A model generated the notes under the pieces. The model did no database searches, was not told the DNA's origin, and saw nothing but the letters and a program-made list of their open reading frames with translations. A stretch of DNA of 64,000 bases from an uncultured bacterium (GTDB lineage Bacteria; Patescibacteriota; Minisyncoccia; Phycocordibacterales; UBA6065), in assembly GCA_963841935.1 (NCBI GenBank), contig CAWJEP010000005.1, positions 69,845 through 133,844 on the forward strand. The letters are read 5' to 3'. Shown one piece after another: positions 16,549 to 64,000 of this stretch (its first letter is position 1; each line of letters starts with the position of its first letter). Both the position numbers and the translations under genes were made by a program.

Positions 16549-17454
16549 CTATTTTTTGTCAATGAAAGCGTGGACAAGTTTTTCTATTTTCGATTTCTCG
16601 GTCGGGGCGAACCATTTCGTATTTTTATCACGGCGAAACCATGTCATCTGTCTCTTTGCGTAGCGATAAATTTCTTTTTCAAGCTCGTAAAGCATTTTCT
16701 CTTTCGAGATTTTGTTTTGCAAATACAAAGCGACATATCTGTACTCGAGGCCGAAATCGTAAAGTCGGCGATAACAGACGCCTTTCTTGTGCAGTTCGCG
16801 GACTTCTTTGACCAAAGCGTCAGAGCGCATTCTTTTGAGCAATCGCGCGTGGATTTTCTCCCTTATTTCTTTGCTCGGCAAAGTGAGGCCTATCGTAAGA
16901 ATCTCGTAATGATTTTTTGTTTTTCGTTTCGGCACTTTACCGAGCGCTTTGGCGATTTCTATGGCTCGGATAATTCGGATTTTGTTTTTCGGGTCGATAT
17001 TTTTGCCGCGTTCAGGGTCGAGAAGCCGAAGTTTTGCTAGCAAAACTTCGGCGGGGAGTTTCTTCAGTTTCGCTCGGAGCTTTTCATTTGGAGGAACATC
17101 GGGCAAGTTGTTATGGAGAAAGTTTTCAATATAAAATCCCGTGCCGCCGCAAATTATGGGAAGTTTGTTGCGGGAGAAAATAGCGGAGGCCGCGGATTTC
17201 GCGTCCGCCGCGAAATCCGCGGCCGTGTATCTTTTCTTTTTTGGGTCGGCGATATCGAGAAGGTAATGCCTGACACCCTTCATTTCTCGGCGAGTTATTT
17301 TCCCGGAACCAATATCAAGTCCGCGATAAACTTGCCGCGAATCAGCGGAAATTATCTCGCCGTTAAACTTTCTGGCCAAAGCCACCGCCAAATCGCTTTT
17401 CCCCGTGGCCGTTTGCCCGACCACGGCTACGATTTTCTGAAATTTCTTACTCAT
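16549..17454 (-). CDS. miaA: tRNA dimethylallyltransferase
   Basis: P-loop VVGQTATGKSDLAVALA, then EIISADSRQVYRGLDIGSGKIT and PIICGGTGFY. This is the canonical MiaA N-terminus. Confidence 0.85.
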   Translation of the reverse strand: MSKKFQKIVAVVGQTATGKSDLAVALARKFNGEIISADSRQVYRGLDIGSGKITRREMKGVRHYLLDIADPKKKRYTAADFAADAKSAASAIFSRNKLPIICGGTGFYIENFLHNNLPDVPPNEKLRAKLKKLPAEVLLAKLRLLDPERGKNIDPKNKIRIIRAIEIAKALGKVPKRKTKNHYEILTIGLTLPSKEIREKIHARLLKRMRSDALVKEVRELHKKGVCYRRLYDFGLEYRYVALYLQNKISKEKMLYELEKEIYRYAKRQMTWFRRDKNTKWFAPTEKSKIEKLVHAFIDKK

Positions 17455-42969: not shown

Positions 42970-44702
42970 ATGTCGAGCGAAGTAGAACAAATAAAAGAAA
43001 GATTGAATATCGCCGATGTCGTCGGCGGTTATCTCAAGCTTGAAAAAGCAGGTCAAAACTTCAAAGCCAAGTGTCCTTTTCACAACGAAAAGACGCCGAG
43101 CTTTTTTGTCTCGCCCGACAGAGGAAGTTATTATTGTTTCGGCTGCGGCGCGCACGGAGACATTTTTTCTTTCGTTGAAGCTTTTGAGGGAGTTGATTTC
43201 CGCGGCGCCCTGAAAAGCTTGGCGGCGAAAGCCGGCGTGGAATTAAAAGGAGGAGACAGGACGGGCGACAACAAGAAAGAAAGATTATACGCCGCCATGG
43301 AAGCCGCCGCCGAATTCTTCGAAACGGAACTTTCGAATAATTCGGCGGCTCGGGATTATGTTTTATCCCGCGGTATTACGGAAAAAACTATTCATTCTTT
43401 CCGAATAGGCTACGCGCCGTCAGAATGGCGGACGCTTAGAACGCATCTTGAAGCAAAAAAATTCGGCATAAACGAACTTTTTGCCGCCGGGCTCGTCAAG
43501 AAAAATGAAAAAGGCGATTTCTACGATGTTTTCCGCGGACGAGTGATGTTTCCGATTGCCGACTCATCCGGCCGCGTCGTGGCTTTCAGCGGTCGGACGC
43601 TCGATGAAAAAGAAAATCCGCCAAAATATTTCAACACGCCGGAGACGGAACTTTATTCGAAATCCCATACGCTTTTCGGTCTCGATAAAGCCAAATCTTC
43701 GATTAGGAAATTCGACCACGCTATTTTGGTCGAAGGTCAGATGGATTTGGTGATGTCTCATCAGGCGGGATTTACCAACACGGTCGCCGTTTCCGGCACG
43801 GCTCTTTCGGAAAACGCCGCCGACGAAAGCGCGTCCGGAATTTCTCTCATCACGCGCTTTCGAAAAATATCAAAATCGCCTTCGACCCGGATGAAGCGGG
43901 AATCAAAGCGGCGCTTCGCGCCGCGCGAATCGCTTTGTCCCTCGGTATGGATGTCAAAATCGCGGCTGGATGTAAAAGGCGAAGATCCCGGCGGATACTA
44001 TCCGCCGAGACCCGAAAGCTTGGAAAGAGCTCTCGCGGCGGAAAAAATGGCGTCGTGACATTTCTCGTTGATTCGATCTTGGAAAAGACTAACGATTTGA
44101 AAAAAATCGCAATCGCCGTGAGAGAACAAGCTTTTCCGTTTATTGTTCTAATGGAAAACAAAACCGACAGGGATAGATTCGTGAAAGAGATTCACGAGAA
44201 GACCGGCATAAGCGAGACGGCGCTTTGGGAAGATCTGAAATCGACGGAAAAGCCGCTACGGAATTCGCCCGCGCCGTCGCCCGAAAACTCGCTTCGCTCA
44301 AACAGTTCTCGCTCCGCAGGCGCCGGTTTCTCCGCTTCCAACAGAGCACTAGGAATCTTGGCGCTCGTGTCGGAGAAAGGCGACGCGGCGGCATTCACTG
44401 AGAAATTAAAAGCCGCGTCGCCAAGCGATTTTGAGAGATTTGAGACGATGACAAAGGAGGAAAAAGGCGAACTCGCCTTCGAAGCGGAGGTATTGTATGA
44501 TGTGAAAGATTTGGAAAAAAATTTCGACGAACTCGTCCTTCACATAGAAGAAGGACGATTGGCGTCTCTTCTTGAACAAAAATTCGCGGATATTTATAAA
44601 TCTGAAAAAGAAAAAGATGTGGGCAAAGCCAAGACGCTTTTGAAAGAAGCCGGCGACATAATGAAACGAGTAAATGAAATAAAGCAAAAACTAAGAAAAT
44701 AA
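42970..44702 (+). CDS. dnaG: DNA primase DnaG, reading frame broken at three points (about 43865, about 43960, about 44050)
   Basis: Zn-ribbon [30 protein letters not shown]. The RNA polymerase domain is present. The TOPRIM motifs continue only by switching frames: ..GTALSEN..RFRK (frame 1), then [33 protein letters not shown] (frame 3), then [24 protein letters not shown] (frame 1), then [14 protein letters not shown] plus the C-terminal domain (frame 3). Two junctions sit in A-runs (cgaaaaata, ggaaaaaatgg). Confidence 0.75.
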
Positions 44703-51440: not shown

Positions 51441-51728
51441 ATGGCTAAGAAATTGTACATAGGAAATCTTTCCTACGGCACGACTTCGGAATCGCTCAAG
51501 GCCGCCTTTGAAAAGGCAGGCACTGTTGTCGACGCTATCGTTCTCACGGACAAAATGACGGGCCGCTCACGCGGTTTCGGTTTCGTCACGATGGAGGACG
51601 CTGACGCCGACAAGGCGATCGCGATGTTTGATGGCAAAGACCTCGAAGGTCGTCCCATCAAAGTCAACGAAGCTCAACCGAGAGAGGAACGCCCGAGACG
51701 CGACTTCGGTCCGCGCCGCGCGTACTAA
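51441..51728 (+). CDS. RRM-type RNA-binding protein
   Basis: RNP-2 motif LYIGNL and RNP-1 motif RGFGFVTM. A 95-aa single RRM with an Arg/Asp-rich tail. Confidence 0.75.
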   Translation: MAKKLYIGNLSYGTTSESLKAAFEKAGTVVDAIVLTDKMTGRSRGFGFVTMEDADADKAIAMFDGKDLEGRPIKVNEAQPREERPRRDFGPRRAY

Positions 51729-51733
51729 ACAAA

Positions 51734-51757
51734 AAGCCCCGCCTAGGCGGGGCTTTT
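51734..51757. terminator. Bidirectional rho-independent terminator
   Basis: GCCCCGCC-TA-GGCGGGGC, flanked by an A-run upstream and TTTTTGTT downstream. It lies between the RRM gene (+) and typA (-). Confidence 0.6.
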
Positions 51758-51763
51758 TGTTGC

Positions 51764-53539
51764 CTATTCTTTTTTCTTGCCTTTCTCTCGGTCGGCTTTT
51801 TTGAGAAATTGTTTTCGCAAGCGAATGGTCTTTGGCGTAATCTCCAAATACTCGTCGTCTTTCATAATTTCGAGGCCGCGTTCTATTGAAAGCGTAAACG
51901 GGGGAGTGAGAAGTATGGCGTCATCTTTGCCGGCGCTGCGATAGTTGCTCATGACTTTTTCTTTCGACGGATTGACGTCGAGGTCATCGCCCTTTGATGT
52001 GTTGCCGACAACCATTCCCTCGTAAATCTCGGCTCCGGGAGAAATGTAAAGCATTCCGCGGTTCTGGAGGTTGTAGAGAGCGAAACCCACGGCTTTGCCT
52101 TTTTCCATGGAGATCATGGAGCCAAATTCGTGTTTCTCAATCGTTCCGACTTCCGGCCGGAATTCAATGAAGCGCGAAGAAAGAATTCCTTCGCCTCTCG
52201 TGTCAATGATAAATTCTCCTCTGTAGCCCAAAAGTCCGCGCGTCGGGATTTCAAACGTCAATCTGGATAAGCCGTTTTCTTCTTTTATGTTCGTCAGCAC
52301 GCCTTTGCGCGCGGAAAGTTTTTTTATGACGTCGCCTCCAAATTCGCTTTTGACGTCGGCGTAAACTTCTTCAAACGGTTCGCAGATGACGCCGCCAATT
52401 TCTTTTTTGATGACTTGCGGTTGCGATACTTGGAGTTCAAATCCTTCGCGGCGCATATTTTCGAGAAGTATGGATATATGAAGTTCGCCTCGACCATAAA
52501 CCTCGAAAATATCTCCGCCGGAAAAGTCAATCTTTAAACCCACGTTTATCTCAAGCTCTTTTTCTAGTCGCTCGCGGATTTGCCGAGTGGTGACAAATTT
52601 GCCTTCACGGCCGGCGAGCGGGGAATTATTAACGAGAAAATTGAGAGCAATCGTCGGTTCGTCTATGGCAATCGCCGGCAAGGCCTGTTGTTCCGCCGAT
52701 TCGCATATGGTTTCTCCTATGAAAATGTCCGGTAAGCCCGCGACCATGGCTATATCGCCGGCGATTGCCTCGCTCGTTTCCTCCCTATCCAGGCCTTTAA
52801 ATGCGTATATTTTGGTAATTTTGCCGGTTCTAGACTCTCCCGTAGGCTTTTTTATTACCACATTTTGACCTGTCTTTACTTTGCCTTCATATATCCTGCC
52901 CACGGCGAGACGGCCGACGAAATTATCGTAAGCGAGATTGAATGGTTGCATTCGAAGCGGCGCGTTCTCGTCCGCTTTCGCCGCCGGCACGCTCTCAAGA
53001 ATCGTGTCGAGAAGGGGAGAAAGGTCGGAAGAATTTTCTTCGAGCGTGCGTTTCGCGATACCTTGTCTACCGATGGCGTAAACAGTTTTGAAATCCAGTT
53101 GTTTATCGTTCGCGCCCAGCTCGATGAAAAGGTCGAGAACTTCATCTAAAGCTTCTTTCGGCCGCGCCGCCGGCTTGTCTATTTTATTTATGACGACGAT
53201 GGGCTTCATTCCGAGTTCCAAAGATTTTTTCAAAACAAATCGCGTCTGCGGCATCGGACCTTCTTGGGCGTCGACGACGAGAAGCACGGTGTCGATTGAG
53301 CGGAGAACGCGTTCGACTTCGGAACCGAAATCGGCGTGTCCAGGGGTGTCGACGATATTTATTTTCGTGCCTTTATAAAAGACGGAAGCGTTCTTTGCGT
53401 ATATGGTAATGCCACGCTCTTGTTCGAGCGCGTTGGTGTCCATTGAAAAACCCTCTTGGGCGGCGCCCGTTTGTTTGAGTATGGCGTCGGTCAGGGTCGT
53501 TTTTCCATGGTCGACGTGAGCGATGATTGCGATATTTCT
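51764..53539 (-). CDS. typA: GTP-binding protein TypA/BipA
   Basis: [22 protein letters not shown] and [16 protein letters not shown], with EF-G-like domains. Start at ATG 53539 (MEIRNIAII). Confidence 0.9.
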
Positions 53540-53805
53540 GATTTCCATAATTCTTTCCGTAAAAATAAAATCCGCCAGCTGGCGGAGAACCCTTTGGCCC
53601 GTCGAGAGACTATAACAGATAGGGGAATAAAAAGAAAGTCTTACTATTTCCAAAAGCTTTTTTATGTTTTATGATAATTTTTCTTTTTTCGGCGATTATT
53701 TGACAGGCCATAAATTAAATATTATCCGGTGAAAATTACATATTTTACCGGGGAATAAAATACTTTTTGTGGATTTTATTTCGTGGCTTTAAATGATTTT
53801 TTAAG

Positions 53806-53846
53806 TATTAATGTTTATCAATGTATAGAAATCATTAGTATTTTTA
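53806..53846 (+). promoter_or_regulatory. Conserved ~40-bp upstream element, copy 1 (shared with 61297-61337)
   Basis: ATTAATGTTTATCAATGTATAGAAATCATTAGTATTTTT is identical in both copies. Copy 1 lies about 160 nt upstream of the giant-gene start, in an AT-rich intergenic region. Confidence 0.4.
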
Positions 53847-54005
53847 TTTTCCTCTTTTTTAAATCTAAGACTGCCGGTAAATCGCAAAATCTTTTTAAAA
53901 GTCCAAAAAGGTAATCAAATTGGTTTTTTCCGCGGAAAAAAGACCTGGAGTTTTTCAACAGATTTGGCTAACCTAAAGCCTTTTTTGTAAATAGAATTAT
54001 GACCA

Positions 54006-57000
54006 ATGGATGACACTGTTCTGATCGAAGGGAAAACACATATTTCATCGAGACGCGCCGCGAAATTAAGCGGTTACACTCAAGATTACGTCGGCCAGCT
54101 TGTTCGCGGCAAAAGAGTCACGGCCAAAAAAATTGGACGCTCGTGGTATATACAAGAAATTTCGTTCCGAGATTATATTTCCGGTAATCCTGTATTAATA
54201 AAAAAAGAATTCTCGAATGACCGAGAAAGGTTAATAAATCGCGAAAAAGTAGAGAAAGAAAAGGTCAGTGGTTACCATCCTGAAAAAATCAGACACGGAA
54301 TACTTCACAGATTTCAGAAATTGACAGCGTTTACCCTCTCCCTCCTCATCGTCTCCTCAGCCATTGCCTTCGCTAATACGGTCAGTCCTCAAGAAGTGGC
54401 GGGATATGTTTCCTCCACAACGGATAAAGGATTGGCCATGGTTTCCTCGGCTGAAGCACTTCTTCGTCAAAGCGCGGACTTGGCCAATTTATACGGCAAA
54501 GAAAACACGGCGCTCGTGGCCGCCTCGGGCGAAAATCCTCTTTTCATCGGAGCCCAAACGGTGGCCCTCGGCGTCTACGAAACATTCCATCCGGCGATTC
54601 AAAACGCCGAATATACTTTGGCGGCGCTCTTTGCCCCGAGAGTTTCTAACATCGCCGTCAGTAACGTTTCGGAATCTCCGATAACCATTAATCTCGCTTC
54701 GAGCACGACGCCAATGACAAGTTCTTCAAGCGCTCTCGCCGTTTATACTCCGCCCGTCACCACGGCAAATCCCGTCATATCTTCGCCAAACAACGTCTAT
54801 TACCAGACTCTCGGCGAGACGCAAGACGAAGTCCAAAGCCAAATAGCCGCCGCCATAGAGCCCCTGATTTTCCAGATTAACGCTTTGGGATACAGAGGAG
54901 GAACGACGCAGTCAAACGTCCAAAACGTCTACGACAACATCGATTTCAGCCGCATTAACGGAGCAAACATCGACAAAAGCTTCGTGAGCGATTCGGCCTT
55001 TACCGGCGGAACCATTAGCGGCGCGAGTATTACCAACTCATCGATTGACGTTCTAAACGTCGGAAACGGTCTCTCGAACATCGCCGGCGATTTGACCGTT
55101 TCCGGCACGACAACAGTCAACAATCTCTTTGCCGCTAATTCTTTGACGAGTAATTCAACCACGACCTCTGCCACCTCGACTAATCTCTACGCCGCGAACG
55201 TCGTGTTGGCAAACGCCACGACGACAAATCTCTTTACCGACTCACTCAACGCTTTGTCGGAGACAATCGATAGCATCACTTCAAATGTCGCGACCATATT
55301 CGGCCTGACCGCGACGAATGCCACGACGACCTCCGCCACGACGACGAATGAATTCGACGCAAACCTCGTCGCTTCAAACGCCACGACGACGGGGAACGCG
55401 TACGTCGGCGGCAATCTCACGGTGGGCGGCAATTCAGTTACCCTGGGCAACTCGAGCGCCAACACGCTCGTCGTCAATTCCGCCGTCGGCTCAAACCTCA
55501 TTCCGAACCAAAACGCCACGTACGACATCGGCTCTCCGGCCTATTACTGGAACAACGAATACGTCGCCACCCTAAACGTCAACAATCTCTCGGCCGCTTC
55601 TTCGACCATCGGCGGAACGACAGACAGCAATTTCACCATTAACTCCGGCAACGGCACTCCCGACACCGAGAGTATGTCACTCACATTCTTCCGAGGCACC
55701 GTGGTGCCAAACGCCGTCATCGCTTGGAACTCTACGACCAAACGTTTCGAATTAAACCAAAGCGCCTTCATTCAAAACGGCTCTACAAACCTTCTTTCCT
55801 CGCCTACGCTTTCGCTCGAGGGTCAAGCGGGACAAACCGGAGACATTTTCGATATCGCGAGCTCAACCGGACAAAACTATTTCAATATCTCCGCCACTGG
55901 CACGACAAACACTTTGGGACTAACTTTCACGAGCGCAACGGGAACCTCCGCCACCACGACCAACTTCTACGCTTCACTTTTGAATTCCATAACGGGAACG
56001 ATTACCAACTTCACTTCAAACTTGGCTACGATTTTCGGTCTGACCGCGACGAATGCCACGACAACGAACGCCACGACGACAAACCTAGTGGTCTTCAATT
56101 CTCCAGTCGCTCCGGCTTTCATCGCCACCTCGACTACGGCTGTGTCTTCGCTTCAACAACTTCTCGTTAACGCAAGTACCACTCTCCAAAACTTCACGTT
56201 CCAAAATGCCACGGGAACAAACGCCACGACGAGCACTCTTTACGTTTCCGGTCAGTCAATCCTTGCGGCGACGGGAGGGGATGTGGGAATCGGACTTACG
56301 AACCCTTCTTATCCGCTCGATATTTATAACGCGGCTAGTGGTGCTTTGAGATTGAATGATTCGAACAATGCAGCCATTATTTCTACCGTAAAAGAATTGG
56401 CCGCGACAAATTTAAATTTTACTGTCAGCGGAACCAATGCTATGACAATAAGATATAACGGAAACATCGGTATCGGCACGACGACACCTTGGGCGTTCTT
56501 CTCTATAAACCCGAACGCCAACTCGCAAGGTCCGCTATTCGTTGTCGGCTCATCGACCGCCACACAATTTATCATAAGCAACACAGGTTTGGTCGGCATC
56601 GGCACGACTTCACCTCTTAGCAAGTTTGATATTGTCAGCAACTACAACGATACCACCGATACTTTCCGAATCGATGCTCCAGACCCGGGAGATTATCATT
56701 TGACTATAAATCCGTATGTGGTCGGCAACGGCAACGTCGGATACAAATTTAAAACCACCGATACCGCGGTCACGGTCACGGCCATGGCTATCACGGGTAC
56801 TGGAAACATAGGTATCGGCACGACGACGCCGGACGCCACGCTCTCCTTAAACGGAAGCGGCGGCTCATACATAGACTTTGGAAATAGCGGGCCAGTCAAG
56901 GCGTACATCGGAACATCGGGAATATTCGGCGCGGCAAGCACGGATGATTTGCGCGTTCGTTCCGATGGTCCAAACATTGATTTTGGTTTTTCTGGACAAA

Positions 57001-60000
57001 TAACTGATGTCATAAATAGTTCCGGTTCAATGGGTATCGGCACGACAACGCCGAATGCTAAACTGGATGTTCTTGGAACCACTGGTAGTCCTGCTACAAG
57101 CGGTTACACCCAAAATGGCATATTCCAGATTGGAGCTTCTATTGGAGGCAATGGTTTGGACTTTGGAGTCTTGGCCGGAGCGCCATACTCGACCTGGATG
57201 CAGTCAGGTTATTTGGGCAACTATTCTCTCGCGGCTTACTATCCAATATCTCTGAACCCTCTTGGCGGCAATGTCGGTATCGGGACGACTAATCCGACGG
57301 CGAAACTTGAAATCGCCGGCACTGGCAGCACACTTGTCCAAGCGAGCACGACCGATGTGACAACTTCTTCCGCTTCGGGATTTCAATCTCTAAGTGACGC
57401 GAGCATACTGACCATGCAAAATCACGGAAGCGCGAGAGTCGTGTCGCGTTATGGACTCACGCTTGGAGGTTGGACAGAGATAACGGCACAGAACAATTTC
57501 GGAACGAACAACGGCATTGTTATCGGAACTCAAAGCGCGGTACCCATCGTCTTCGGTACGAACAATACCGAATATATGCGCATTACCGGCGCCGGCAACG
57601 TCGGCATCGGGACGCCGGGGCCTGGTTACAAGTTAGATGTTCAAGGCAATGCTGGTATTGTAACTGTAAACACTAATGGCTCCGTGTCTGCAGGTGGACA
57701 ATATGTCTCTGGTATTGGAAGTTTTGCATCCGCAAGCGATGGAACTGATGTTGTTTTACAAGCTGGAGCTACGACACTTATGACTTTGAAGTCCGGCGGC
57801 AACGTCGGCATCGGGACGGCGAGTCCTCAAGTCAGGACTCATATTGTCGGTCCGTCGTTAACTGAAAGTTCCGAGACTTCGTATGCCTTATGGGTGGCCA
57901 ACACCAACGCTCCGACGAAAGCGTTGATTATGGGTTACGACACTACCGCCGATATCGCCGTCATCAATGCCGTGCAGCAAGGGGTAACTTGGAAGAACAT
58001 CGCGATGCAAACCAATGGCGGCAACGTCGGCATCGGAACTACGAACCCGGGAGCGACCTTGGATGTGAACGGGTATGGACGCTTCGTCAGCCCCAACGGA
58101 GGATCAACCGGCGCCGTTATAATTAGAGACGCCAGCGGGAACCCTAATGCCGCGTATTTGCAGTTCACCAATAATGCAGACTCCGTGGAGTACGCAGACA
58201 TTCGTGGGCTCGCCGCCGGAGGAATGGCTCTAAACGGCGGTAACGTCGGCATCGGGACGACGAATCCTTCCCAAAGATTGTCGGTGAACCAATCACTCGC
58301 TATCACGAATGTGGGCGGCGGCGGTGCCCAGTATCTGCTCATGGGCAATCAAGATTCTGCTGGCGTCAATAACCCCGTAGTACTGCAAGCAGCTAACGGT
58401 GACTTGAGCATCGGTCACGGGTCCAGCTGGACGGACCCGGTGGGGGGCACCTTCTCATCAAATGTAACATTCAAGAACGGTGGCAACGTCGGCATCGGGA
58501 CGACGAATCCAGCGTATAAGTTGGACGTGAATGGTACAGCAAACATTGGTGGTAATTTTACTGTCGGTGGCAACTTGACTATAAACGGAAGTTACAATAC
58601 AAGTTTGTATAGCCTTACAACAAGCAGAAGCGGAGGAGTGAATTATGCTTATCCTGATGTTGCGGGGGCGTCGGTTGGTTTAGTGCTTGGCGGAACCAGT
58701 AATGGTAATGGAACAATTGCTTTGAATACCACTGGTAGCAACACAACACCGACGATGTATCTTTCAACAACCGGCAACGTCGGCATCGGGACGACGGCGC
58801 CGGAGTCAAATTTGACTGTACAAAATACTAATGCAGGTGGTCGAGGAGGTGAAATAAGTATCACAAATCTCTCCAATACGATCAATTCAGAAGCGGCGTT
58901 AAATTTTGGTGTTGATAACTCCAGCTACAATGCCGACTCCGGTAACGGTCAGATTAAAGTTGTTAATATGGATGGAGCGACAATGAAATCGGATATGGTA
59001 TTTTCAACTTGGAACGGTTCTGCTTTTGGCGAGAGAATGAGGATACAATCAGGTGGCAACGTCGGCATCGGACGACAGTCCCGCTCAATAAATTGGATAT
59101 TGCAGGGGCTTCTGCGATTGGCAGTGATTATGCAGGTGCTTACACGGCTCCAACTAACGGTGCAATAATAGAAGGCAACGTCGGCATCGGGACGGCGAGT
59201 CCAGGGCAAAAACTTGATGTAAACGGTAATATCAATTTTGCGGCTGCGGGATATATTACCAACAACAATAGCTCGTACTTTGGCGCAGGTAACGTACTGG
59301 TGTCAGGCGCGGCATCAACGGATACAGGTATTTTGACAAGCGGGAATATTGTTTTTGGCACCAATGCCGGCGCGGGGAATACTGAGCGCATGCGCATCAC
59401 TTCGACCGGCAACGTCGGCATCGGGACGACGAATCCGCAGTCGCCACTTCAACTGGGTTCAGTGTTTGCATTACAACAAGATGTAAATAGTGGTTATATT
59501 GGCGCAAACTTTGGCGGAATAATAATTAGTTATATCAAGAGCCAATATGCCAACCAAATACAGTTTGACTCTGCACTGGGTAATATCAATTTTAAAGTAG
59601 CACCATCCGGAACTGCTGGTAACCCTATCACTTACACAACAGCAATGGCGATAAATTCTTCCGGCGAGGTCGGTATCGGAACAACGAATCAAAACAATCC
59701 ATTGGAAGTCGACAGTTCGGCGGGCGCTGAGACCGGAATCAATATATTCAATTCAAATATAAACGGCGGGGCGCAGCTTAGTCTTCACAGTATCTCAACC
59801 GGCACCGGTCCTTTTGGCGGCGCTACAATTTCGTATTCAAACGTGGCCGGGCCATACGCAAACGCCCTGGTCATAATGAATACATACTCCGCTCCATTAA
59901 TACTTGGTACCAACAACGCCAATAGATTCGAGATAGACAATAACGGCGACGTGGGTGTTGCAATACTATCCGCGGGTACATCCAATTCTCTCTGCTACAA

Positions 60001-60978
60001 CAACATAGTCAATCCCGGTTACAATTCCATCGGCACGTGTTCCTCCGACGAAAGAGTTGAAACAAAATATTACTCTCGCTCTCCGACAACACCGGACTCT
60101 CGGTGATTAACGCTTTAAATCCGGTGTCCTTCAATTGGAATCCGGCGTTTTCAAACGACCAGAGCGAACAATACGGATTTATAGCGCAGGACATTCAAAA
60201 GGTTTTGCCGAGCTTGGTCTCGACGAGTTCTCCGACGGCTCTCACGCCTGACGGCACGTTGTCGCTCAACTACAACGGACTCTTCGCTCCGATAGTCAAA
60301 TCGATTCAGGAACTTGACGCCGATTTGTCTTCGACAACGCAAGCGGTATTCGCTCTGCAGACAGAAGTGGCCGGCATAGAGAATGTTTTGAGTAGCAATT
60401 ACTCGACATCGTCGGCGAGCGTCTCAACGACTACCGTCTCCAACGTAGTTACAAACTGGTTCTCGTCTCTAGGCGTGGCTATCGAAAATGGAGTATTTCA
60501 TTTTGGAAACCTCATCGCCGACACCTTGACCGCCACGACGGAAGTGGTGAACACGGTCAACGCGGAGACTATTACAACGGCAAACTTTACCGTCGAGCCG
60601 GCCGCGGCCGCGATGTCATCATCGGGTATTACTATTTACGACCGCGCTTCGGGCAAACCGACTTGTCTCTTCGTGAACAACAACACAATAGAAGAAACAG
60701 CCGGCGCCTGCGGCACGTTTGATTCTTCGTCAAACAACAATTCAAGCAATCAAAATAATTCCGGAAACAATCCTACGGACGGCAATGGGGGAACGGACAC
60801 TTCGACTTCGACTCCATCCACGGACACCTCGACGTCCACTCCTTCGTCCGACGTCTCGACATCCACTCCGTCAACAGACGTTTCCACTTCCACTCCGTCC
60901 ACTGATACTTCGACTTCCACGCCTTCGACCGACACCACGGACGCTTCATCCACCGACGCTACATCGACAACGCCGTAA
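54006..60978 (+). CDS. Giant (~2,300 aa) surface fibre-like protein: N-terminal excisionase-type HTH-like module, TM helix, GNVGIGTTNP-type repeats, C-terminal Peptidase_S74 intramolecular-chaperone domain, Ser/Thr/Pro-rich tail. The frame is broken twice (about 59075 and about 60060).
   Basis: The N-terminus ISSRRAAKLSGYTQDYVGQLVRGKRVTAKKIGRSWYIQEISFRDYI fits the HTH_17/excisionase pattern (..A..LG.s...v.rlvr.G.l.a.KiGR.Wri). A single TM helix (LTAFTLSLLIVSSAIAFA) follows. Then more than 1,500 aa rich in T/N/S/G with about 14 repeats of GGNVGIGTT(N/T)P..KLDV roughly every 77 aa. The continuation ORFs 59009-60106 and 60103-60978 keep the repeats. They end in NKILLSLSDNTGLSVINALNPVSFNWNP...QYGFIAQDIQKVLPSLVS...LSLNYNGLFAPIVKSIQELDADL, which is the tail-fibre/endosialidase chaperone (Peptidase_S74) signature. 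The frame breaks coincide with homopolymer tracts (ggcatcgg-acg versus ggcatcggGacg, gaaaca versus gaaaaca). Confidence 0.6.
54333..55913 (+). repeat. 1,581-bp block identical to 61830-63410 (copy 1)
   Basis: Direct comparison shows the two segments are the same at constant offset 7,497 from 54333/61830 up to a T/C difference at 55914/63411. The six-frame ORF track gives identical ORF translations in both copies. Confidence 0.8.
60790..60960 (+). repeat. Tandem 27-nt (9-aa TSTSTPSTD-like) Ser/Thr/Pro-rich coding repeats at the C-terminus of the giant protein
   Basis: TDTSTSTPSTDTSTSTPSSDVSTSTPSTDVSTSTPSTDTSTSTPSTDTTDASSTDATSTTP, encoded by near-perfect tandem copies of acttcgacttccac(g/t)ccttc(g/a)(a/t)c(c/a)gac. 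Confidence 0.6.
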
Positions 60979-61068
60979 CATACATATATATGTATATGCC
61001 GACAAGCCCGTATTTTCATTTTTTGAATTTTTGCTATAGTATCCGAGTCGCTCTTTTGTTCCAAACAT

Positions 61069-61143
61069 TCCGGGATAGCTCAGCGGTAGAGCAGTCGCCT
61101 GTTAAGCGATTGGTCGGTGGTTCGATCCCACCTCCCGGAGCCA
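61069..61143 (+). tRNA. tRNA-Asn (anticodon GTT)
   Basis: TCCGGGATAGCTCAGCGGTAGAGCAGTCGCCTGTTAAGCGATTGGTCGGTGGTTCGATCCCACCTCCCGGAGCCA. Anticodon stem GTCGC/GCGAT, loop CTGTTAA. The 3' CCA is encoded. Confidence 0.8.
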
Positions 61144-61296
61144 AGAAAGAAAATTCTAGACGAGGGACTTTTTTTGTTGTCCGTTGATGTTCGGTTTTCC
61201 GATAAACATGGAAGTTTTAAATTCCTGAGCGTCGAAAGGTCAATTTTATATCAAAAAACTAGGTTTCATTTTTAACCTTTAGATTTCTAATTTGTG

Positions 61297-61337
61297 TTAT
61301 TAATGTTTATCAATGTATAGAAATCATTAGTATTTTT
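61297..61337 (+). promoter_or_regulatory. Conserved ~40-bp upstream element, copy 2
   Basis: The same ATTAATGTTTATCAATGTATAGAAATCATTAGTATTTTT, about 142 nt upstream of the second giant-gene start (61479). Confidence 0.4.
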
Positions 61338-61478
61338 TTCTTTTGACCGCGAAAAGAAAATCCGCGAGTTTCTCTCAAAAATCCGAGAAAAAATCATAAA
61401 AAACTATTAAAGAGACCTGTGGTTTTTCCACCTGTTCCGCATATGAAAATATGGCTATAAACAATAGAATTATGGCCA

Positions 61479-64000
61479 ATGGAGAGCAAGGTTACTATCG
61501 CCGGAAAAATATATATTTCGGCAAAGTCGGCGGCAAAAATTACCGGCTATGCCCAAGACTACGTCACACGTCTTATTAGACTAAAAAAATTTTCCGCGCA
61601 AAAAATCGGCCGGTCTTGGTATGTCGAAGAAGATTCTTTTTTGAAATTCTGGACGGAACACAAAGAAACGCTTTCCGATTCTGCTTTGAAACAAAGCGAT
61701 ATGTCGGCTATCCGACCGGCAAATGTTCCTCAATCTTTTTTGCCTCCCGAAAAAGAATATGTTTCTCTGCAAAAACCGGAAATCAGAAAAAAACCGGCGC
61801 AGCTCAAAATCCCGAACTTTGTAACTCTGACCCTCTCCCTCCTCATCGTCTCCTCAGCCATTGCCTTCGCTAATACGGTCAGTCCTCAAGAAGTGGCGGG
61901 ATATGTTTCCTCCACAACGGATAAAGGATTGGCCATGGTTTCCTCGGCTGAAGCACTTCTTCGTCAAAGCGCGGACTTGGCCAATTTATACGGCAAAGAA
62001 AACACGGCGCTCGTGGCCGCCTCGGGCGAAAATCCTCTTTTCATCGGAGCCCAAACGGTGGCCCTCGGCGTCTACGAAACATTCCATCCGGCGATTCAAA
62101 ACGCCGAATATACTTTGGCGGCGCTCTTTGCCCCGAGAGTTTCTAACATCGCCGTCAGTAACGTTTCGGAATCTCCGATAACCATTAATCTCGCTTCGAG
62201 CACGACGCCAATGACAAGTTCTTCAAGCGCTCTCGCCGTTTATACTCCGCCCGTCACCACGGCAAATCCCGTCATATCTTCGCCAAACAACGTCTATTAC
62301 CAGACTCTCGGCGAGACGCAAGACGAAGTCCAAAGCCAAATAGCCGCCGCCATAGAGCCCCTGATTTTCCAGATTAACGCTTTGGGATACAGAGGAGGAA
62401 CGACGCAGTCAAACGTCCAAAACGTCTACGACAACATCGATTTCAGCCGCATTAACGGAGCAAACATCGACAAAAGCTTCGTGAGCGATTCGGCCTTTAC
62501 CGGCGGAACCATTAGCGGCGCGAGTATTACCAACTCATCGATTGACGTTCTAAACGTCGGAAACGGTCTCTCGAACATCGCCGGCGATTTGACCGTTTCC
62601 GGCACGACAACAGTCAACAATCTCTTTGCCGCTAATTCTTTGACGAGTAATTCAACCACGACCTCTGCCACCTCGACTAATCTCTACGCCGCGAACGTCG
62701 TGTTGGCAAACGCCACGACGACAAATCTCTTTACCGACTCACTCAACGCTTTGTCGGAGACAATCGATAGCATCACTTCAAATGTCGCGACCATATTCGG
62801 CCTGACCGCGACGAATGCCACGACGACCTCCGCCACGACGACGAATGAATTCGACGCAAACCTCGTCGCTTCAAACGCCACGACGACGGGGAACGCGTAC
62901 GTCGGCGGCAATCTCACGGTGGGCGGCAATTCAGTTACCCTGGGCAACTCGAGCGCCAACACGCTCGTCGTCAATTCCGCCGTCGGCTCAAACCTCATTC
63001 CGAACCAAAACGCCACGTACGACATCGGCTCTCCGGCCTATTACTGGAACAACGAATACGTCGCCACCCTAAACGTCAACAATCTCTCGGCCGCTTCTTC
63101 GACCATCGGCGGAACGACAGACAGCAATTTCACCATTAACTCCGGCAACGGCACTCCCGACACCGAGAGTATGTCACTCACATTCTTCCGAGGCACCGTG
63201 GTGCCAAACGCCGTCATCGCTTGGAACTCTACGACCAAACGTTTCGAATTAAACCAAAGCGCCTTCATTCAAAACGGCTCTACAAACCTTCTTTCCTCGC
63301 CTACGCTTTCGCTCGAGGGTCAAGCGGGACAAACCGGAGACATTTTCGATATCGCGAGCTCAACCGGACAAAACTATTTCAATATCTCCGCCACTGGCAC
63401 GACAAACACTCTGGGTCTGACCTTTACGAACGCCACGGGAACCTCCGCTACTACGACCAATCTCTACGTTGCAAACGTCATATCGGCAAGCGCCACAAGT
63501 ACGAACTTCTACACCTCTCTTTTAAATTCCATAACGGGAACAATCGCAAACTTCACGTCAAACTTGGCGACAATTTTCGGACTAACTGCCACCAACTCCA
63601 CGACGACAAACGCCACCACTACGAATCTCGTGGCATTCAACGCTCCCGTCGCTCCGGCTTTCATCGCCACCTCGACTACGGCCGTTTCTTCCTTCCAACA
63701 ATTCTTGGTTAACGGAAGCACCACTCTCCAAAACTTCACCTTCCAAAACGCCACGGGCACGAGCGCGACGACGACGAACTTCTTCTCCACGAACGCCGTC
63801 CACACGAGCGCTACGACGACGAATCTCTTCGCGACAAATTTCAACGCGACGAACGAAATTCTTACGAATCTCATCGCAACTTACTCAACTACCACTTACG
63901 CCACTTCAACAAATCTTTACACTTCCGGTCAGACGATTCTCGCGGCGACAGGGGGCAACGTCGGCATCGGGACGACGAATCCGACGCACCTACTTGCAGG
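61479..64000 (+). CDS. Paralog of the giant fibre-like protein (HTH-like N-terminus, TM helix, shared 1.58-kb block, then diverged repeats), 3' partial at the window end
   Basis: MESKVTIAGKIYISAKSAAKITGYAQDYVTRLIRLKKFSAQKIGRSWYVEEDSFLKFW... aligns residue-for-residue with the N-terminus of copy 1 and is followed by the same TM helix. It is absent from the ORF track because it runs off the window without a stop. GNVGIGTTNP repeats resume at 63957. Confidence 0.55.
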   Translation, partial: MESKVTIAGKIYISAKSAAKITGYAQDYVTRLIRLKKFSAQKIGRSWYVEEDSFLKFWTEHKETLSDSALKQSDMSAIRPANVPQSFLPPEKEYVSLQKPEIRKKPAQLKIPNFVTLTLSLLIVSSAIAFANTVSPQEVAGYVSSTTDKGLAMVSSAEALLRQSADLANLYGKENTALVAASGENPLFIGAQTVALGVYETFHPAIQNAEYTLAALFAPRVSNIAVSNVSESPITINLASSTTPMTSSSSALAVYTPPVTTANPVISSPNNVYYQTLGETQDEVQSQIAAAIEPLIFQINALGYRGGTTQSNVQNVYDNIDFSRINGANIDKSFVSDSAFTGGTISGASITNSSIDVLNVGNGLSNIAGDLTVSGTTTVNNLFAANSLTSNSTTTSATSTNLYAANVVLANATTTNLFTDSLNALSETIDSITSNVATIFGLTATNATTTSATTTNEFDANLVASNATTTGNAYVGGNLTVGGNSVTLGNSSANTLVVNSAVGSNLIPNQNATYDIGSPAYYWNNEYVATLNVNNLSAASSTIGGTTDSNFTINSGNGTPDTESMSLTFFRGTVVPNAVIAWNSTTKRFELNQSAFIQNGSTNLLSSPTLSLEGQAGQTGDIFDIASSTGQNYFNISATGTTNTLGLTFTNATGTSATTTNLYVANVISASATSTNFYTSLLNSITGTIANFTSNLATIFGLTATNSTTTNATTTNLVAFNAPVAPAFIATSTTAVSSFQQFLVNGSTTLQNFTFQNATGTSATTTNFFSTNAVHTSATTTNLFATNFNATNEILTNLIATYSTTTYATSTNLYTSGQTILAATGGNVGIGTTNPTHLLA
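61830..63410 (+). repeat. 1,581-bp block identical to 54333-55913 (copy 2)
   Basis: See copy 1. After 63410 the copies stay similar but diverge. Confidence 0.8.

Follow-up and report, generated by a model that had tools for sequence, protein, structure and literature searches.

A 1,581-bp block identical between two old tandem fibre-like genes of a Paceibacteria chromosome, probably the product of recent recombination

Introduction

Two giant genes lie in tandem, separated by a tRNA-Asn gene, in a 64,000-nt window of a chromosome from the Patescibacteria/Paceibacteria (candidate phyla radiation, CPR). The window is the whole stretch of DNA that was analyzed, and coordinates are window positions unless a related contig is named. 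Gene 1 (G1) and gene 2 (G2) are predicted from their sequence features to encode membrane-anchored giant surface proteins that resemble phage tail fibres. They share a block of 1,581 bp without a single difference, whereas the sequence on both sides of the block is anciently diverged. Two relatives of the locus served for comparison. L001 is a syntenic ENA contig (ERZ25039529 contig_143068) from a noisy assembly with "contig_" names, and a study shared with the window contig is not established. L006 is an independent JGI contig that carries the tail of G1 and an ortholog of G2.

Results

G1 and G2 follow a common layout (Table 1). An N-terminal module of ~60 aa, related to HTH_17 and excisionase domains, is followed by a basic linker, one transmembrane (TM) helix, a stalk, Thr/Asn/Ala-rich repeats, a conserved domain of ~180 aa and modules that open with GNVGIGTTNP. 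A Peptidase_S74 domain and a Ser/Thr/Pro-rich tail are seen in G1, whose end falls inside the window. The HTH_17 profile matched 17 of 20 family members, mostly below the Pfam cut-off (best E = 1.6e-7). The central and C-terminal parts of G1 match the PHROG tail-fibre families phrog_9942 (E = 1.4e-33) and phrog_18345, and the S74 region is also matched by PHROG tail-fibre C-termini.

The N-terminal module, with the pattern GY[AT]QDYVGQL.R...GR.WY, occurs together with a TM helix in many CPR metagenome contigs (42 loci, L003-L047). It is often tandemly duplicated and is found both in small proteins (230-330 aa) and in giant ones (>3,000 aa). The fusion of a DNA-binding-like cytoplasmic domain with a membrane anchor and a very large ectodomain has no evident explanation.

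The list of open reading frames (ORFs) splits G1 into three pieces by frameshifts (54006-59168, 59009-60106 and 60103-60978). The first-pass annotation, made from the sequence alone, had ended G1 at 59168. Frame analysis moves the end to 60978, through a -1 shift near 59071 and one or two further shifts at ~60050-60100. At the first site GGG has become GG within a GNVGIGT motif, where the recurring ...ATCGGGACG reads ATCGGACG. The second site holds one or two indels and falls at the start of the S74 domain. All of these frameshifts sit in runs of 3-4 nt, that is, in short homopolymers.

Peptidase_S74 is an intramolecular chaperone of tail fibres and endosialidases. The domain in G1 is C-terminal and preceded by fibre repeats. 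As read, it covers only profile positions 20-57 (E = 2.3e-9; 37.8 bits against a cut-off of 22). Repair of the frame yields the full profile, 1-57, at 60.3 bits with two shifts or 48.6 bits with one, and the two-shift repair brings back SDERLKQNI, the region of the Ser-(x4)-Lys cleavage motif. Because repair restores a full S74 domain with the canonical SDERLKQNI, the frameshifts in G1 are probably sequencing errors rather than signs of pseudogenisation. The first ORF piece of G1 (1,720 aa) is present in a public protein collection, on the same 268,473-bp contig as P0001, the public protein of G2. P0001 is 850 aa long and stops 10 codons beyond the window. We judge a contig end 30 nt past the window to be a less likely cause of this stop than a frameshift.

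Table 1. Coordinates of the features of the fibre-gene pair
Feature	Position	Strand	Remarks
Conserved 40-bp AT-rich upstream element, copy 1 (TATTAATGTTTATCAATGTATAGAAATCATTAGTATTTTT)	53806..53845	+	200 bp before G1 start
G1, giant fibre-like surface protein (predicted)	54006..60978	+	~2,320 aa; ORF list and frame analysis
G1 N-terminal cytoplasmic module (predicted): HTH_17/excisionase-like domain and basic linker	54006..54332	+	No DNA-level sharing with G2
Identical block, copy 1	54333..55913	+	Codons 110-636 of G1 (start 54006)
G1 post-block segment R1	55914..56232	+	Homologous to G2 63411-63774, anciently diverged; 82% nt, deletions of 45 nt and ~135 nt relative to G2
Array of fibre repeat modules, each opening with G(G)NVGIGTTNP	56274..59715	+	Repeat families D1, D2, D7
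Module 97-98% identical to L001 12937-13198	59174..59437	+	264 bp, bounded by two GNVGIGT motifs; both flanks unalignable
Peptidase_S74 domain, then Ser/Thr/Pro-rich tail	60043..60978	+	Pfam; domain start broken by 1-2 indels
tRNA-Asn (GTT), between the two direct block copies	61069..61143	+	ARAGORN and Rfam; same position in L006
Conserved 40-bp upstream element, copy 2	61298..61337	+	181 bp before G2 start
G2, running past the window end	61479..64000	+	ORF; public protein P0001
Identical block, copy 2	61830..63410	+	Codons 118-644 of G2 (start 61479)
Interval with 3' recombination breakpoint (GGCACGACAAACACT, same in G1, G2 and L001)	63396..63410	+	Three-sequence test
G2 post-block segment R2	63411..64000	+	~99-100% to L001 for the first ~300 bp, ~96% up to the window end; not G1-like

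The first-pass annotation had reported 1,581 bp of base-for-base identity between the two genes, and the comparison bears this out exactly. Positions 54333-55913 and 61830-63410 differ at no site, and the match cannot be extended by one base on either side. The repeat is direct and in frame at an offset of 7,497 bp, and its first base falls on a codon boundary in both genes. At its 5' start the block coincides exactly with the TM helix (TLSLLIVSSAIAFA), and it then encodes a lineage-specific stalk, the Thr/Asn/Ala-rich repeats and the conserved domain of ~180 aa. The last third (aa 345-527) is found again in 575 representative proteins, mostly of 1,000-3,900 aa, while the first two thirds are lineage-specific. 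Searches with the block sequence in Pfam, NCBIfam, PHROG and PDB returned no match. The AlphaFold model of the conserved domain was unusable, at a mean pLDDT of 40.9.

Outside the block the likeness of the two genes fades quickly. Upstream, identity at the same offset is ~20-30%, which is the random level; downstream it decays. Gapped alignment extends homology past the block to 56232/63774, at 82% identity over 284 nt with indels of 45 nt and ~135 nt. Beyond that point only the recurring GNVGIGT-coding motif matches between G1 and G2. The next longest repeats within the window are at most 86 bp, which excludes chance as the source of the 1,581-bp identity. No comparable long identical repeat was found in 47 related loci, where all repeats lay within genes and reached no more than 400 bp and 98% identity.

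Recombination between the direct 1.58-kb repeats would remove the tRNA-Asn(GTT) gene along with 7.5 kb. If this is the only tRNA-Asn gene, selection would act against the deletion product and so stabilize the pair.

The N-terminus of the second copy and the region upstream of it had been described as diverged. At the DNA level this stands, at 52% identity. The N-termini are nonetheless homologous as protein (~45% aa identity), and the description had missed a 40-bp element that is 100% identical upstream of both genes, amid intergenic DNA that is otherwise unalignable. No match of this kind is expected by chance. The element is ~90% conserved upstream of homologues as well (L001 6869-6917 and L006 2764-2804), and a second short conserved stretch (AATAGAATTATGnCCAATGGA) runs across the start codons of both fibre genes. 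From its conservation and position, the 40-bp element is a candidate promoter or operator shared by the two genes. It could conceivably be bound by their own N-terminal helix-turn-helix (HTH) module. A promoter and terminator scan gave nothing above background and did not call the element as a sigma-70 promoter.

We estimated synonymous (dS) and nonsynonymous (dN) divergence by the Nei-Gojobori method. Between G1 and G2, the N-terminal segment has a dS of 1.8 and a dN of 0.61, and the post-block segment a dS of 0.94 and a dN of 0.049. Both values are 0 in the block, which holds ~397 synonymous sites. Between the window and L001, dS is 1.05 for bipA (dN 0.045) and 1.03 for truB (dN 0.094). Since the flanks of the block are about as divergent at synonymous sites as BipA and TruB are between these two genomes, the flanks are as old as that split. 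The tandem arrangement is old as well. L006 runs from the G1 C-terminus through tRNA-Asn and a 2-kb insertion to a G2 ortholog with an N-terminus of the G2 type (N2), and the N-terminal module of G2 (61479-61829) is 90% identical to it in nucleotides. The duplication therefore predates the split from L006. The N-terminal module of G1 is 76% identical in nucleotides to its homologue at the same locus of L001. With flanks this old, the identity of the block does not stem from a recent duplication of the whole gene.

The block is 100% identical within the genome, as against 58-72% to the gene at the G1 locus of L001 and 71-85% to the G2 ortholog of L006. In this tract the paralogs are thus more alike than the orthologs. 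Taken from sequence comparison, this pattern is the classical signature of interlocus gene conversion, or concerted evolution.

The 3' edge of the block was resolved by aligning G1, G2 and L001. The last site at which G2 agrees with G1 and differs from L001 is 63395, and the first at which G2 agrees with L001 and differs from G1 is 63411. Informative sites group G2 with G1 by 141 to 0 over 62896-63410; beyond 63410, 12 group G2 with G1 and 154 group it with L001 (Fisher p = 5e-74). The 3' breakpoint is therefore sharp and lies inside homologous sequence. The 15-nt sequence at the breakpoint was considered as a recurring recombination joint and rejected, as it occurs within the window only at the two block ends.

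We consider it likely that the block was produced by recent interlocus gene conversion or patch recombination. Recent gene conversion had been among the origins suggested in the first-pass annotation, and it is favoured by flanks at dS 0.94-1.8 around a block with no substitution, by paralogs that are closer than orthologs, by a tandem kept in a relative and by the sharp 3' breakpoint. G1 and G2 would then be old tandem paralogs on either side of the tRNA-Asn gene. One paralog would have received at least 1,581 bp of the other in a recent homologous recombination event within the genome, by interlocus gene conversion or by a double crossover with the same patch-like result. The event would have erased divergence from the TM helix through the end of the conserved domain, with the 3' end of the tract falling within 63396-63410. 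We infer RecA-type conversion as the mechanism, and the direction of copying and any adaptive role likewise. Real recombinational homogenisation in a broader sense, which takes conversion together with the import variant considered below, is quite probable.

Two sets of observations weigh against this reading, and the first concerns the edges and the direction. At its 5' edge the block abuts DNA without homology, and identity jumps from ~50% to 100%; the G1-type and G2-type genes of relatives are only ~59% identical there. Lacking flanking homology, a classical conversion tract has no obvious anchor at this edge, and an illegitimate or microhomology junction may be needed. On direction, the clues disagree. 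In its TM helix and stalk the block is closer to the G2 ortholog of L006 (SLLIVSSA...) than to the G1-locus gene of L001, which suggests G2 as the donor, but G2 looks mosaic relative to L001 at the 3' edge, which suggests G1. Possibly crossovers favour the end of the conserved domain and took place there more than once, or an L001-like segment was partly overwritten later. Finally, G2 63411-63700 nearly matches a genome at dS ~1, which calls for a second, very recent transfer between lineages, or for an artefact.

These edges could also be read as traces of import. A larger recent duplication might have had its flanks replaced later from related lineages, or one foreign allele might have replaced the same segment in both genes by transformation. 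An illegitimate or homology-facilitated junction accounts for the abrupt 5' edge better than a conversion tract does, and the L001-like segment starts just where the block ends on its 3' side. Replacement between lineages appears to occur, given that G2 past the block is ~99-100% identical and one G1 module 98% identical to L001. DprA is encoded in the window (recA is not among its genes), and competence is documented in the phylum. L006, however, keeps the same order of N2-type N-terminus, tRNA-Asn and G1 tail, which indicates that the flanks are ancestral in place and not recent imports. Import also needs more events than one conversion, and no donor or external allele of the block was found in ~5.8 billion proteins or in scans of genomes, metagenomes and viruses. 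We regard import as improbable.

The second set of observations concerns the consensus itself, as the identity of the block is that of the assembled sequence. This consensus is imperfect, as frameshift clusters in dnaG and the fibre genes show. In L001 there are homopolymer deletions, and an independent Logan contig from the same organism departs from it by 0.4%; both L001 and the window look like noisy long-read assemblies. Because the called G2 protein ends so soon after the window, the second copy may adjoin a problem region. Cross-talk would fit the 98-100% patches between genomes at dS ~1, on the unestablished condition that one assembly supplied both contigs. Given local indel errors, cross-talk could turn near-identical copies into identical ones and exaggerate the patches shared with L001. 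On an artefact of assembly or polishing, the genes would be real, and the perfect identity, possibly with its edges, would have been made by the assembler through a collapsed repeat edge, cross-mapped polishing or a chimeric join. The true copies would be only similar.

Such an artefact seems to us unlikely. The unconverted flanks of the paralogs differ by 18-48%, and copies as different as this neither collapse nor cross-polish. The true copies must therefore have been highly similar already, so that homogenisation is real and an artefact would explain only the step from nearly identical to identical. Long reads over a 1.58-kb repeat would mostly reach unique flanks. All four junctions of the block continue open reading frames, and three are collinear with independent contigs: the join of the G1-type N-terminus (N1) to the TM helix and that of the block to R2 in L001, and the join of N2 to the TM helix in L006. 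The join of the block to R1 has no independent counterpart. Among the ORFs of the window that were scanned with Pfam, those other than dnaG and the fibre genes give full-length domain matches, which puts the overall indel rate at roughly 5-6 in 64 kb. At this low rate 2 x 1.58 kb should hold less than one random difference, and zero differences are unremarkable for truly identical copies. The assembly error rate was accordingly rejected as a ground for suspecting the perfect identity.

Surface-fibre genes are typical targets of programmed variation systems, and the first-pass annotation had raised a recombination cassette mechanism. The block could in principle be the substrate of a silent cassette system, a shufflon, a diversity-generating retroelement (DGR) or phase-variable expression of one copy. 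A frameshifted G1 could be a silent donor, and the invariant GNVGIGT-coding motif bounds an exchanged module. Against this, both copies have ATG starts, N-terminal modules and the same 40-bp element, and the frameshifts look more like sequencing errors. There are only two copies, both full genes, with no truncated or partial cassettes in 64 kb. The block repeat is direct, and no inverted repeats were found in 53600-64000. No recombinase, invertase or reverse transcriptase domain was found in the neighbouring ORFs scanned, which did not include every small ORF. DGRs combine a reverse transcriptase with template and variable repeats of ~100-150 bp that differ at adenines. A repeat of 1,581 bp with zero mismatches is unlike such a pair. 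The cassette proposal thus found no backing at this locus, and we hold a programmed system to be very improbable.

The block is not the only segment with an uneven history. Window positions 63411-64000 and 59174-59437 are 98-100% identical to L001 9260-9830 and 12937-13198, respectively, in genomes whose housekeeping genes stand at dS ~1.0. These segments reflect either very recent exchange between species or, if the two contigs belong to one metagenome assembly, consensus cross-talk. The DNA that encodes GNVGIGT (GGCAACGTCGGCATCGGGACG) is nearly invariant across ~11 modules (56274-59715 and 63948-63996), and the rest of each module is ~60-80% conserved. Either codon preference is strong here, or a potential recombination joint has been homogenised at the DNA level.

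Since near-identical segments are shared with L001 at dS ~1, the block would be one instance of ongoing modular recombination of the fibre genes. Exchange between lineages could plausibly proceed by natural competence. Patescibacteria are enriched in competence genes, and Saccharibacteria have been shown to undergo natural transformation in which DNA integrates by homologous recombination (PMC11665869). It is tempting, if speculative and on balance doubtful, to see the fibre genes as an actively shuffling module system. Its joints would be the domain end at 63396-63410 and the GNVGIGT-coding DNA, with segments exchanged between expressed paralogs and, through competence, between co-occurring species at dS ~1. 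Such shuffling would re-assort the host attachment of an episymbiont, and an essential tRNA-Asn would guard the pair from deletion.

Discussion

The closest parallel known to us from the literature is found in Helicobacter pylori. The paralogous adhesin and outer membrane protein (OMP) genes babA/babB, sabA/sabB and homA/homB undergo concerted evolution, and chimeras arise by RecA-dependent intragenomic recombination (PMC3960876). As with the bab and hom genes, the locus described here consists of two full-length, separately promoted surface-protein paralogs in which one segment is alike within the genome and others are diverged. The tract differs in being internal, from the TM helix to the conserved domain, rather than at the 3' end, and in having a 5' edge that lacks flanking homology. 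The setting differs too: the genes are tandem and ~7 kb long, they belong to uncultured Paceibacteria, they encode tail-fibre-like proteins instead of beta-barrel OMPs, and they are known from sequence alone.

The pair also resembles the mosaic tail-fibre and tailspike genes of phages, which swap modules at conserved linkers and carry the S74 chaperone at the C-terminus. It has PHROG matches, an S74 domain and modules that are 98-100% identical between diverged genomes, one of them bounded by a short conserved motif. Unlike phage fibre genes, G1 and G2 are chromosomal, among rpoBC, dnaG, rpoD and bipA, and they encode an HTH-like cytoplasmic module and a TM anchor.

Silent-cassette variation, as in Neisseria pilE/pilS, Borrelia vlsE and Mycoplasma genitalium MgPa/MgPar, transfers segments non-reciprocally between related surface-protein sequences of one genome. 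The present locus departs from these systems in that it has no array of promoterless partial cassettes, both genes are complete, and the outcome is homogenisation rather than diversification.

The mechanism proposed here is a textbook one. The novelty is in the setting, uncultured Paceibacteria, and in the near-identical segments common to distinct species. Patescibacteria are thought to be host-attached, and their essential genes include predicted surface adhesins (PMC11665869). With most lineages uncultured, hardly any work has addressed how such surface proteins vary. A real block would mean that giant fibre genes in a Paceibacteria genome are homogenised and re-assorted in parts by ordinary recombination, and that the same genes contain segments near-identical to those of a clearly different species. 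The locus would then offer a concrete site, its junctions defined, for tracking recombination rate, competence-driven exchange and host-range variation through metagenomic time series. An artefactual block would instead caution against trusting long repeats where metagenome assemblies are noisy.

Additional observations at the locus

The window genes around the fibre pair are ordinary chromosomal ones (clpB, alr, parB, topA, dprA, serS, rpoB, rpoC, dnaG, rpoD, truB and bipA). The best named relatives of RpoB are Candidatus Paceibacterota and Taylorbacteria, and the nearest relatives have RpoB proteins that are 98% and 95% identical (P0015, P0016). No phage genes lie near the fibre pair, and a scan of viral contigs returned no relatives of the locus. 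A search for further relatives by way of the RRM-protein gene yielded five contigs (L048-L052), all of which end in bipA. Rfam found only tRNAs in the window.

The dnaG gene (42970-44702) is read as two ORFs. Several frame changes fall within ~43830-44060, several of them within ~100 bp, and Toprim-C motifs are recognisable in each of the three frames. Either assembly indels cluster locally here, or an essential gene is damaged.

Relative to the window, L006 carries an insertion of ~2 kb (L006 653-2632) right after tRNA-Asn, between the fibre genes. It contains two ORFs (213 and 280 aa) and may be a small element integrated at the tRNA.

A perfect 34-bp palindrome (51728-51761), probably a bidirectional terminator hairpin, lies between the convergent RRM-protein gene, which ends at 51728, and bipA, which ends at 51764. 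Shorter palindromes occur at 17025-17052 and 17188-17224.

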